A DNA stretch of 64,000 bases, taken from NCBI RefSeq assembly GCF_009931435.1, contig NZ_CP043414.1; one strand, given 5' to 3'. Below, piece by piece: positions 44,167-45,770 of this stretch (position 1 is its first letter; the number at the start of each line of letters is the position of its first letter). Position numbers and translations under genes: made by a program. Below the pieces are notes generated by a model, which saw nothing but the letters and a program-made list of their open reading frames with translations, ran no database searches and had not been told where the DNA came from. The stretch is from Escherichia coli. Lineage in GTDB: Bacteria > Pseudomonadota > Gammaproteobacteria > Enterobacterales > Enterobacteriaceae.

Positions 44167-44684
44167 TCTACTCCTGCCATCTGGATGATAATCATTTCAC
44201 GGAGAGAAGCACTCAGAAGTACCACTGAAGTATAGCTGGTGACCAGCTACTTACACATCTATTGCCATCCTGCTGATGATAAGTCGACATTAGCCCTTCT
44301 GTCTATAAACGAAACAAAGGATAAGTTCAGGTTTTAAACACACTGCCAGGATAAAGTATTGTATACAGTATAGAAGAGCGTTATTGAATGACATAAAAAA
44401 CCAGACCTAATCCCTTATCCGGAAGATATATCAAATAAACGGGGAAAATGTATTAAGATGGCGTTCCTATTCTCTCCATCCCTGATGTCCACGTAACTCG
44501 TTATAGAATCAGAACGCCATCTGAATACACACAAAAAAGCTGGCTTCACACCCTCCAGATGTGTGAACGCAGTGCCCGACCACGTGCTTTCGCAACCAGC
44601 ACAAATCATTTTAAAGCATCGAAAAACGATCAGAATATATCAGAACTTCCTAGCATCCTGCTTGGCTTAGATATTAATCGAGGA

Positions 44685-45770
44685 TTAGCTCCTGTTCTTA
44701 TCTAATTGTGCATTTCGCAATTTATCGTTCAGCACCAATATTTCACCAACTGTTTGTTCAAAACGCCCGGACTCAAGTTCAACCCCAATCGTGCGACGCC
44801 CCAATCCCATTGCTGCTTTTATTGTTGCCCCCGATCCCATAAAAAAATCCGCAACCACATCCCCCGGACGACTGCTGGCAGAAATTATCTGACGCAACAT
44901 ATCCGCCGGTTTTTCGCAGGGATGCTTACCCGGATAATACTGCACGGGCTTATGCGTCCAGACGTCCGTATAAGGAACGGCGGCCGATACAGAAAAATAA
45001 CGCCGCAGAGATTTGTATTCCTCAAGCAGACTGGCATATTGCCGGTTCAGTTCACTGTATGTGCTGACCAGTTGCTGGTGTGGCGTTGCCAGCTCCCCAC
45101 GCTGGTGCTTTTCTTCTGCAACACACGCGAACAGCGCCTGCAGTTTTCTGTAATCAGCTTCGTTCGGTAACTGCCACTGACAGGTACCAAACCAGTGCGA
45201 CACCATGTTTTTCTTTCCGGTGGCTTCCGCTATCTGTTTGGACGTTATCCCCAGTGATTCACGCGCATCACGGAAGTAAGAAATCAGCGGGGCCATGACG
45301 TGTTGTTTAAGCTCGCGCTCCTTTGCCGCATAGCCATCATTTTTTGGCTGGTATGGCCCCTGATAATGTTCGGCAAACAGAATGCGCTCTGTTGCCGGGA
45401 AATACGCCCGCAGGCTTTCTTTGTTGCACCCGTTCCAGCGTCCGGATGGCTTCGCCCAGATAATGTGGTTCAGCACATTAAAGCGCTCACGCATCATGAT
45501 TTCGGTGTCAGATGCCAGGCGATGACCACAGAACAGGTAGAGACTTCCGGCAGGTTTCAGTACCCGCCAGAACTGAGCCAGACACTGATCCAGCCATTTC
45601 AGGTAATCATCGTCGCCCTTCCACTGGTTATCCCAGCCCTCGGGCTTCACTTTAAAGTATGGCGGGTCTGTGACTATCAGATCGACAGAGTTTTCCGGTA
45701 AGGTCTGGATAAATTCCAGGCAATCAGCGTTGATTAACTCACAACTGGATATTTTTACAGTATCAACCAT
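44685..45770 (-). CDS. Orphan DNA methyltransferase (beta-class, N6-adenine or N4-cytosine)
   Basis: 361 aa; DPPY catalytic motif near the N-terminus (LIVTDPPYF) and AdoMet-binding motif near the C-terminus (DFFMGSGAT); no adjacent restriction endonuclease. Confidence 0.85.
   Translation of the reverse strand: MVDTVKISSCELINADCLEFIQTLPENSVDLIVTDPPYFKVKPEGWDNQWKGDDDYLKWLDQCLAQFWRVLKPAGSLYLFCGHRLASDTEIMMRERFNVLNHIIWAKPSGRWNGCNKESLRAYFPATERILFAEHYQGPYQPKNDGYAAKERELKQHVMAPLISYFRDARESLGITSKQIAEATGKKNMVSHWFGTCQWQLPNEADYRKLQALFACVAEEKHQRGELATPHQQLVSTYSELNRQYASLLEEYKSLRRYFSVSAAVPYTDVWTHKPVQYYPGKHPCEKPADMLRQIISASSRPGDVVADFFMGSGATIKAAMGLGRRTIGVELESGRFEQTVGEILVLNDKLRNAQLDKNRS

Follow-up and report, generated by a model that had tools for sequence, protein, structure and literature searches.

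The locus analysed here raises the question of what is contained in an apparently gene-free gap beside an orphan phage DNA methyltransferase gene, and whether the structured sequence within this gap belongs to the methyltransferase. The gap (positions 44167-44684, 518 bp) and the adjoining methyltransferase gene (44685-45770) are part of a lambdoid prophage present in a 64,000-nt stretch of Escherichia coli contig NZ_CP043414.1 (assembly GCF_009931435.1; the whole stretch is referred to below as the window), the late strand of this prophage being the '-' strand of the window. A preliminary description of the locus, made from the sequence, had pointed to a perfect 11-bp inverted repeat in the gap and had treated the surrounding region as one associated with the methyltransferase. 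Our analysis identifies most of the gap as decayed DNA of a slot that holds tRNA genes in related prophages, and the repeat as part of a small, rare and unannotated 150-nt late-strand RNA module, which falls outside described families and, judged from its sequence, looks constrained as RNA.

A 150-nt module on the late strand

The inverted repeat was found exactly where it had been placed before (AGATGGCGTTC at 44456-44466 and GAACGCCATCT at 44512-44522, with 45 bp between them). Taken alone, a perfect 11-bp inverted repeat is unremarkable in 64 kb, the window containing six with a spacer of at most 60 nt and each of six shuffled windows containing zero to three. The arms really extend over 25 nt (44449-44473 and 44505-44529; 88% complementary) and specify a long hairpin (Table 1), which is the sole stem in the window with at least 20 Watson-Crick pairs and at most three mismatches, six shuffles yielding none. 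Its fold z-score is -4.2 (0 of 200 shuffles fold as well); the corresponding value for the whole 518-bp gap is -0.42, i.e. not unusually structured.

The hairpin starts 2 nt past a run of six U's (U6), which itself abuts the 7-bp closing stem of a cloverleaf-like four-way junction, and this closing stem encloses three smaller hairpins. Junction and U6 (44533-44600) followed by the long hairpin (44448-44530) constitute the 150-nt module. When the sequences of its homologues are compared column by column, 90.6% of the cells of the hairpin are paired as against approximately 43% with slid partners (five sequence types), while the corresponding values for the junction are 99.5% and 28-44% (nine variants). 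Variable columns in the junction avoid paired positions (6 of 42 paired versus 16 of 25 unpaired columns; Fisher p = 4.5e-5), and its outermost pair has undergone one compensatory change, from G-C to A-U in locus L048, the intermediate being seen in L005 (L numbers designate related loci).

The same comparison indicates the strand concerned. In every homologue of the hairpin, pairing on the late strand is superior to that on the opposite strand, and in loci L003, L004 and L048 the opposite strand forms 13-16 of the 24 pairs as compared to 20-22 of 24 on the late strand, so that up to seven pairs are lost. The observed changes comprise one that is compensatory and six that retain pairing through U-G, the latter on the late strand only. 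Because reading the opposite strand entails this loss of pairs, the hairpin is a structure of the late RNA and not a symmetrical DNA site.

Variation along the locus was counted over 14 distinct variants of the window-type locus. None of the 81 columns of the hairpin (44449-44529) is variable, and neither is any of the last 156 nt of the methyltransferase gene (0/156); the rest of the module together with its upstream side (44530-44684) contains 10 variable columns per 100 nt, the sequence downstream (44167-44448) contains 21, and the 92-aa gene that follows contains 4. A more sensitive search retrieved seven further genomes at 78-83% identity, in which alignment is confined to 44449-44607 (three genomes) or to the junction half, 44507-44603 (four genomes). 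With prophages of other make-up, nothing but the module can still be aligned (79-83% identity), and three of these were fetched (L003, L004 and L005). The element follows a methyltransferase gene in L004; in L003 and L005 a methyltransferase gene is absent and the element is located after a DUF1133 gene and before tRNA-Thr and tRNA-Gly genes. Since L003 and L005 carry the module in this way, it is independent of the methyltransferase, and the idea that the structured sequence represents a regulatory region of that gene did not hold. Searches of IMG/VR and metagenomes returned the same five sequence types only. The existence of the module, its strand and its pattern of conservation are stated as results, the case for it resting on the pattern of variation and not on formal covariation statistics.

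Several other identities were considered and rejected. Derivation of the junction from a tRNA would fit its topology, yet comparisons with tRNA-Thr, tRNA-Gly, tRNA-Ile and tRNA-Arg, and with the decayed tRNAs of L047 and L053, all gave z below 3. A terminator or small RNA (sRNA) on the '+' strand was dismissed, as the structures on that strand lack a following U-run, and a mobile repeat element of the miniature inverted-repeat transposable element (MITE) type was discarded on the grounds that there are one or two copies per genome, always at this prophage position. The only promoter candidate before the junction (TTCTGA-16-TAAAAT) was likewise set aside, as it sits in the most variable columns.

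The gap is an eroded tRNA slot

The origin of the remaining sequence was deduced from 80 related loci, these being the closest among more than 600 IMG/VR stretches encoding a relative of the methyltransferase. In approximately 65 of the 80 the methyltransferase gene is followed by a tRNA array, which in nearly all of them starts at +68 to +280 nt. The arrays consist of Ile(CAU)-Arg-Arg, Thr-Gly, Gly or Lys genes, some being followed by stx2e, and then by the same holin pair; they possess a promoter of their own, which in L052, for instance, reads TTGAAA-16-TATTAT and has a G+C-rich discriminator. The window type, with the gap and a 92-aa gene (orf92) in place of the array, accounts for 8 of the 80 loci and is present in 50 of 5426 complete E. 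coli genomes; strains BCE049, A35 and ETEC4073 are examples that have precisely this locus.

The RefSeq annotation of 44167-44684 is empty, and neither ARAGORN nor the Rfam tRNA model calls a tRNA gene in 43700-44800. Nevertheless, 44221-44286 aligns to tRNA-Thr with a local score of 25 (shuffles: mean 9.9, sd 1.4, maximum 16), and in blastn comparisons it is approximately 70% identical, over 72-80 nt, to tRNA-Thr genes located after the methyltransferase in other loci. The acceptor pairing of this relic has been lost. Between the relic and the module lies the remnant of a second long hairpin, of which L003, L004 and L048 still possess an intact homologous copy (covariance model R1: E = 4e-5, 5e-6 and 3e-4, respectively). 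The window copy attains only 5.3 bits with this model, although homology to L048 continues through the stretch at approximately 72%, and among the variants the stretch displays a 7-nt deletion and many substitutions.

The presumed ancestral arrangement is that of L048, in which the methyltransferase gene is followed by the module, the second hairpin, a tRNA promoter, tRNA-Thr, tRNA-Gly and another branched structure plus hairpin; by analogy with other tRNA-Thr/Gly loci the holin genes would come next, the L048 contig ending before that point. In the window, the tRNA-Thr gene and the second hairpin have decayed, orf92 has taken the place of the rest, and the module has been kept. Decay of a Stx-type phage tRNA/toxin cargo slot hence explains most of the gene-free gap, whose present cargo is orf92. 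Decayed tRNA-Thr-like sequences (GTGCTGGCTTTCC...GTGATTCCGGAAGCCAG) also precede tRNA-Gly, 3' of the methyltransferase gene, in L047 (~5180-5230) and L053 (~5180-5260), which indicates that erosion of tRNA genes is recurrent in this slot.

Some additional observations concern orf92 and this prophage segment. A copy of orf92 with 61% identity (L039:4001-4276) is present, unannotated, in phage mEp460 approximately 580 nt past Q, and in some E. coli strains orf92 is followed by TerB and DUF3927 genes rather than by a DUF1883 gene. In addition, a 2.7-kb contig in a 'Bacillota bacterium' metagenome-assembled genome (L034; JAEWMQ010000075.1) is 98% identical to the prophage segment over 961 nt; it belongs to this E. 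coli prophage, and was probably misplaced by a binning or contamination error.

An M.EcoGII-type orphan methyltransferase

The presence of an intact beta-class methyltransferase gene at the upstream end of the gap was corroborated. The encoded protein matches PF01555 with 146.5 bits (cutoff 26.7; E = 1.5e-42; residues 29-340). In the beta class, the catalytic DPPY motif comes first, followed by a central target-recognition domain and finally the SAM-binding FxGxG motif, and this order is found here, VTDPPYF being located around residue 33 and FFMGSGAT around residue 309, with both the DPPY and FxGxG motifs being intact. Alignments to beta-class structures break into an N-terminal and a C-terminal block.

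M.EcoGII and M.EcoGI are non-specific adenine DNA methyltransferases of E. coli O104:H4 prophages. The window protein is identical to M.EcoGII at 293 of 345 residues (85%, with 1% gaps), the central target-recognition domain included, a value which is, if anything, an underestimate because the comparison sequence was machine-read from the supplement of PMC11551740. Its identity furthermore amounts to 91% with the L24 protein of phiP27, a Stx2e phage, and to 85% with the methyltransferase of phage 1720a-02, and it shares with these proteins and with M.EcoGII and M.EcoGI the beta-class motif order, a prophage-borne gene and the absence of an endonuclease partner. It differs from M.EcoGII in length (361 instead of 349 aa) and in its final 17 residues, and its gene precedes a decayed tRNA slot in place of tRNA genes. 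Assignment to the M.EcoGII type is firm, and methylation without sequence specificity is predicted for the window allele. This part of the locus is known biology, representing one more allele of an enzyme already in use as a laboratory tool, to which it adds nothing new.

That the methyltransferase is an orphan, as the preliminary description had it, is correct because an endonuclease gene is absent nearby: none was found near the methyltransferase gene in the window, nor adjoining it in the annotated related records that were inspected, and PADLOC reported the methyltransferase only. Its neighbours are a 65-aa winged-helix gene, a membrane protein gene, Q, orf92 and holin genes; it is phage-borne and has its place in the late operon. 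The 65-aa gene lies directly 5' of the M.EcoGII-type gene in 77 of the 80 related loci, the other three having less than 200 nt of sequence upstream of the methyltransferase gene; its product may act as a partner of the methyltransferase or regulate it, and a discussion of it was not found in the available part of the M.EcoGII paper (PMC5778455).

In the order of the late strand, i.e. RusA, Q, PR', tR', methyltransferase and holins, both the methyltransferase gene and the gap are downstream of the antiterminator gene Q, of a site with the position expected for PR' of lambdoid phages, and of a tR'-like terminator (Table 1). They are therefore placed inside the Q-controlled late transcription unit, and for the same reason the methyltransferase is expected only with Q read-through. 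The tR'-like terminator was read directly from the sequence and is not listed by the terminator scan; a homologous segment is kept 3' of Q-like genes in L003, L005 and several phages.

According to the published account of M.EcoGII (PMC5778455), the enzyme modifies adenine whatever the surrounding sequence, its constitutive expression is toxic and the lysogen does not express it; the authors propose that it is switched on upon prophage excision or induction in order to guard DNA against restriction. By its position and by this account, the window enzyme would be made only once Q lets RNA polymerase past the terminators, after induction, and would then modify the adenines of replicating phage DNA irrespective of context, blunting many host restriction systems. 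A comparison of methylation motifs in a lysogen, which had been put forward both as a test and as a means of refutation, is unsuited to an enzyme of this type: since M.EcoGII has neither a motif nor lysogenic expression, an absent motif in a lysogen refutes nothing and such a test is uninformative.

Comparison with described RNAs

The gap matched no known RNA family at the Rfam gathering score, and neither did 43700-44800 at E values up to 10. The STnc100/PasD model RF02076 had no hit in the window at the former threshold or in 43700-44800 at the latter, while it did recover STnc100 downstream of stx2B in a Stx2a phage (E = 1e-35). The conserved 3' region of AgvB/AsxR and PasA/PasC (TTGCCCGAACCCANTCGGGC, or GCCAGCAC...GTGCTGGC followed by a U-run) gave 0 matches at up to three mismatches, and for AgvB, AsxR, PasA and PasC there was no similarity on either strand of the window, blastn-short returning words at chance level. 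All six sRNAs (AgvB, AsxR, PasA, PasC, PasD and STnc100) are thus absent from the window.

The module is nonetheless located in a zone from which prophage sRNAs with an effect on virulence are known. Eight prophages of strain Sakai contain convergent sRNAs in the interval from the cargo to the following conserved ORF, including the anti-sRNAs AgvB and AsxR (Tree et al., PMC4104026), and PasA, PasC and PasD of enteropathogenic E. coli (EPEC) adjoin holin operons (PMC8550237; preprint 10.64898/2026.05.13.724894). The sense-strand partner corresponds to Rfam STnc100 (EcOnc27). STnc100/EcOnc27/PasD resemble the module in occupying the same slot, from PR' or cargo to the lysis genes, on the late strand, and in having a branched structure with a long-range closing stem and a terminal U-run; they differ in length (170-240 nt as compared to approximately 70 nt here) and in that the closing stem here abuts the U-run, a separate terminator hairpin being absent. 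AgvB/AsxR and PasA/PasC occupy the same intergenic zone upstream of lambdoid holin genes (PMC4104026, PMC8550237), yet they are antisense to the late operon and have a simple GC-rich terminator, whereas the module is on the late strand.

A different parallel is offered by retroregulation at lambda sib/tI and by the RNase III sites of T7 early mRNA, where a long stem directly past a terminator is formed only in read-through transcripts. The module shares with these systems a long, near-perfect stem with small internal mismatches which comes after the putative terminator and would form on read-through only. In lambda sib the terminator hairpin is part of the RNase III stem, whereas here the hairpin is separate and downstream of the U-run.

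A similar layout is seen with hairpins that we term HP-A (TTTACAACA...TGTTGTAAA), present on the late strand in 18 of the 80 related loci, with a length of approximately 85 nt (80-95) and 34 pairs. They start inside the U-run that follows tRNA-Thr/tRNA-Gly arrays, and in the three loci that were read (L047, L048 and L050) this U-run is preceded by a branched structure. Six of the HP-A pairs covary and G-U pairs are numerous; the score of the HP-A covariance model is approximately 60 bits higher on the late strand, and a match in Rfam was not found. Like the module, therefore, HP-A combines a branched structure and U-run with a subsequent long hairpin, on the same strand and in the same region, and in L003, L004 and L048 an HP-A-type copy directly adjoins the module. 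Membership of the window hairpin in HP-A was not borne out, the covariance model giving only 13.2 bits (E = 0.1 with filters off), and for this reason analogy and not homology is claimed.

Interpretation of the locus

In our judgement the explanation that best accommodates these results, and which we hold with roughly even confidence, is that two independent things of the late operon lie side by side, namely an M.EcoGII-type methyltransferase and an eroded tRNA slot that keeps a constrained RNA module, the latter being likely a terminator or processing element. The closing stem together with U6 would act as an intrinsic terminator and hence mark the 3' terminus of a short stable RNA, halting polymerase that has not been modified by Q before it reaches the lysis genes. 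The long hairpin would form in read-through transcripts only and may serve in processing or in RNA stability, a site for RNase III being most plausible; it would separate or destabilise RNA heading into the holin genes. A substrate of RNase III comprises about two helical turns of double-stranded RNA, and the 24 pairs of the stem are interrupted by two 1x1 mismatches. A small RNA arising from the gap, as had been suggested before, is still a reasonable proposal.

A number of points weigh against this reading. Cleavage by RNase III is pure conjecture; being branched, the structure departs from the canonical hairpin of a terminator, and it was not called by the consensus scan; and a conserved promoter upstream of the junction was not found. 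The hairpin of L005 has 6 of its 24 positions unpaired. The module is also rare and narrowly distributed, being present in 57 of 5426 complete E. coli genomes and five metagenome contigs, in no sequenced phage and in no other species, GTDB species representatives giving chance matches only. Covariation does not rise above shuffles (values as high as those observed arose in 300 of 500 and in 114 of 500), which is attributed to there being only five sequence types, and the invariance among the 14 variants could in part be due to mosaic recombination rather than selection.

The main rival, somewhat unlikely in our view, is that junction and U6 form the body and terminator of a trans-acting, Hfq-binding sRNA cut from the 3' end of a methyltransferase or late-leader transcript, with the hairpin as an accessory. 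Genes for AgvB, AsxR and EcOnc27/STnc100 are known from the slot that separates PR' from the lysis genes (PMC4104026), and PasA, PasC and PasD lie by holin operons (PMC8550237); PasD and STnc100 are likewise branched and stem-closed, PasA is processed from a longer transcript, and a stem followed by U6 is the usual 3' end for Hfq binding. The retention of stems with varying loops can be read in the same manner, yet the loops are then the most variable parts of the molecule, and neither a conserved promoter nor a conserved single-stranded seed was found, nor any match in sequence or model to the sRNAs named. Moreover, if the silence of M.EcoGII in lysogens, as reported in PMC5778455, applies here, the source transcript may exist only after induction. 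Another reading, which we consider unlikely, dispenses with function and takes the module for slowly decaying leftovers of the tRNA slot whose conservation reflects recent common descent and block-wise recombination. Decay is demonstrable for the adjoining tRNA-Thr gene and for the second hairpin, the topology of the junction is that of a cloverleaf and the slot is one normally occupied by tRNAs, the distribution is narrow with five sequence types and no significant covariation against shuffles, and divergence of the flanks is block-wise, as mosaic recombination predicts. What speaks for constraint instead is that the invariant hairpin (0/81 columns) lies beside stretches with 10-21 variable columns per 100 nt, that about 80% identity is kept in three further prophage backgrounds although their flanks cannot be aligned, that nearly all substitutions preserve pairing, on one strand only, with variation avoiding paired columns (p = 4.5e-5), and that similarity of the junction to local tRNAs is not significant (z below 3).

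A DNA-level role of the inverted repeat, whether as an operator bound by the 65-aa winged-helix protein or by some other regulator, or as a cruciform or recombination site controlling the methyltransferase, is very improbable. Inverted repeats are typical protein-binding sites and a helix-turn-helix gene does accompany the methyltransferase (77/80 loci), but 25-nt arms set 31 nt apart are unlike an operator, U-G pairing corresponds to C-A on the other strand and leaves the arms asymmetrical (13-16 versus 18-22 pairs), L003 and L005 keep the element without either gene, and it lies downstream rather than upstream of the methyltransferase gene. Least credible of all is that the gap encodes a small protein. 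The preliminary description had found no ORF of 60 aa or more in it; in fact, a 64-aa ORF with an ATG start is present on the late strand (44415-44609). This ORF is not conserved, being broken by 1-nt indels at ~44559 in 9 of the 14 variants and at ~44539 in 4 of the 14, with more indels in L003-L005; a Pfam match was not found, and the NCBI pipeline leaves it unannotated. The earlier observations were consequently confirmed in part, i.e. for the methyltransferase ORF, the repeat and the orphan status and not for the ORF-free gap, and the interpretation built upon them is supported in part.

A more far-reaching version of the terminator and processing explanation, which we rate as quite unlikely, is that the module stands for a class of cis-acting RNA not described before, a 'fail-safe insulator' of lambdoid late operons, in which a tRNA gene has been reshaped to a cloverleaf terminator combined with a long RNase III-type hairpin that forms on read-through only, and of which HP-A hairpins would be members. 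If true, the insulator would prevent constitutive transcription of cargo or tRNA genes from running into the lysis genes of lysogens. More generally, should the module terminate or process late transcripts, it would bear on how lysis and toxin genes located beside constitutive cargo are silenced in lysogens.

Coordinates and further features of the prophage

The features of the locus are collected in Table 1. The gene for the 237-aa membrane protein, which comes immediately after the tR'-like terminator, represents another cargo gene, and the terminator scan lists additional terminator-like sites at 45917-45934 and 43847-43864.

Table 1. Positions of the module, its surrounding genes and signals in the window, and of HP-A hairpins in related loci (L-numbered positions)
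Feature	Position	Strand	Remarks
Cloverleaf-like four-way junction	44533..44600	-	RNAalifold consensus
Closing stem of junction	44600-44594 with 44545-44539	-	7 bp, 4 G-C pairs
GC-GAAA-GC mini-hairpin	44593-44586	-	
Hairpin b	44585-44580 with 44572-44567	-	6-bp stem, 7- to 11-nt loop
Hairpin c	44566-44561 with 44551-44546	-	6-bp stem, 8- to 10-nt loop
U6 run	44538-44533	-	abuts closing stem
Long hairpin containing the inverted repeat	44448..44530	-	24 pairs (7+12+5, two 1x1 mismatches), 31-nt loop
Decayed second long hairpin	44333..44437	-	homologous copy intact in L003, L004, L048
Decayed tRNA-Thr(UGU) pseudogene	44221..44286	-	by alignment only
HP-A hairpins	L050:5490-5584, L058:5472-5564, L048:4889-4976	late strand	examples, plus 15 other loci; alignment A3, model R1
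RusA gene	47922-48281		first listed in late-strand gene order
Antiterminator gene Q	47260-47931	-	PF06323 type
Candidate late promoter PR', TTGCAA-17-TATATT	47224..47252	-	begins 8 bp past Q stop; 9/12 matches (promoter scan)
tR'-like intrinsic terminator, ACCCG-N8-CGGGT then T7	47147..47170	-	~70 nt past candidate PR'
237-aa multi-pass membrane protein gene	46292-47005	-	phrog_1521, no Pfam family
65-aa winged-helix (TrmB-like) gene	45921..46118	-	weak Pfam TrmB match, E = 0.0026, below curated cutoff; phrog_331
Beta-class N6-adenine DNA methyltransferase gene, M.EcoGII orthologue	44685..45770	-	361 aa, ORF intact
92-aa gene (orf92)	43888..44166	-	phrog_2873; AGGAG ribosome-binding site; terminator 43847-43864; RefSeq hypothetical
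DUF1883 gene	between 92-aa gene and holin genes	opposite strand	
Two holin genes and GH108 endolysin gene	41856-43111		

Two other perfect inverted repeats were noted in the window-wide scan, at 40437-40475 and 46765-46847, one with 14-bp arms and an 11-nt spacer and the other, within the membrane protein gene, with 12-bp arms and a 59-nt spacer. The early region of the prophage contains a hok/sok-type toxin-antitoxin RNA at 50788-50962 on the '-' strand (Rfam sok, 105 bits), and in the identical RefSeq locus a ParD/ParE pair is located near this RNA.

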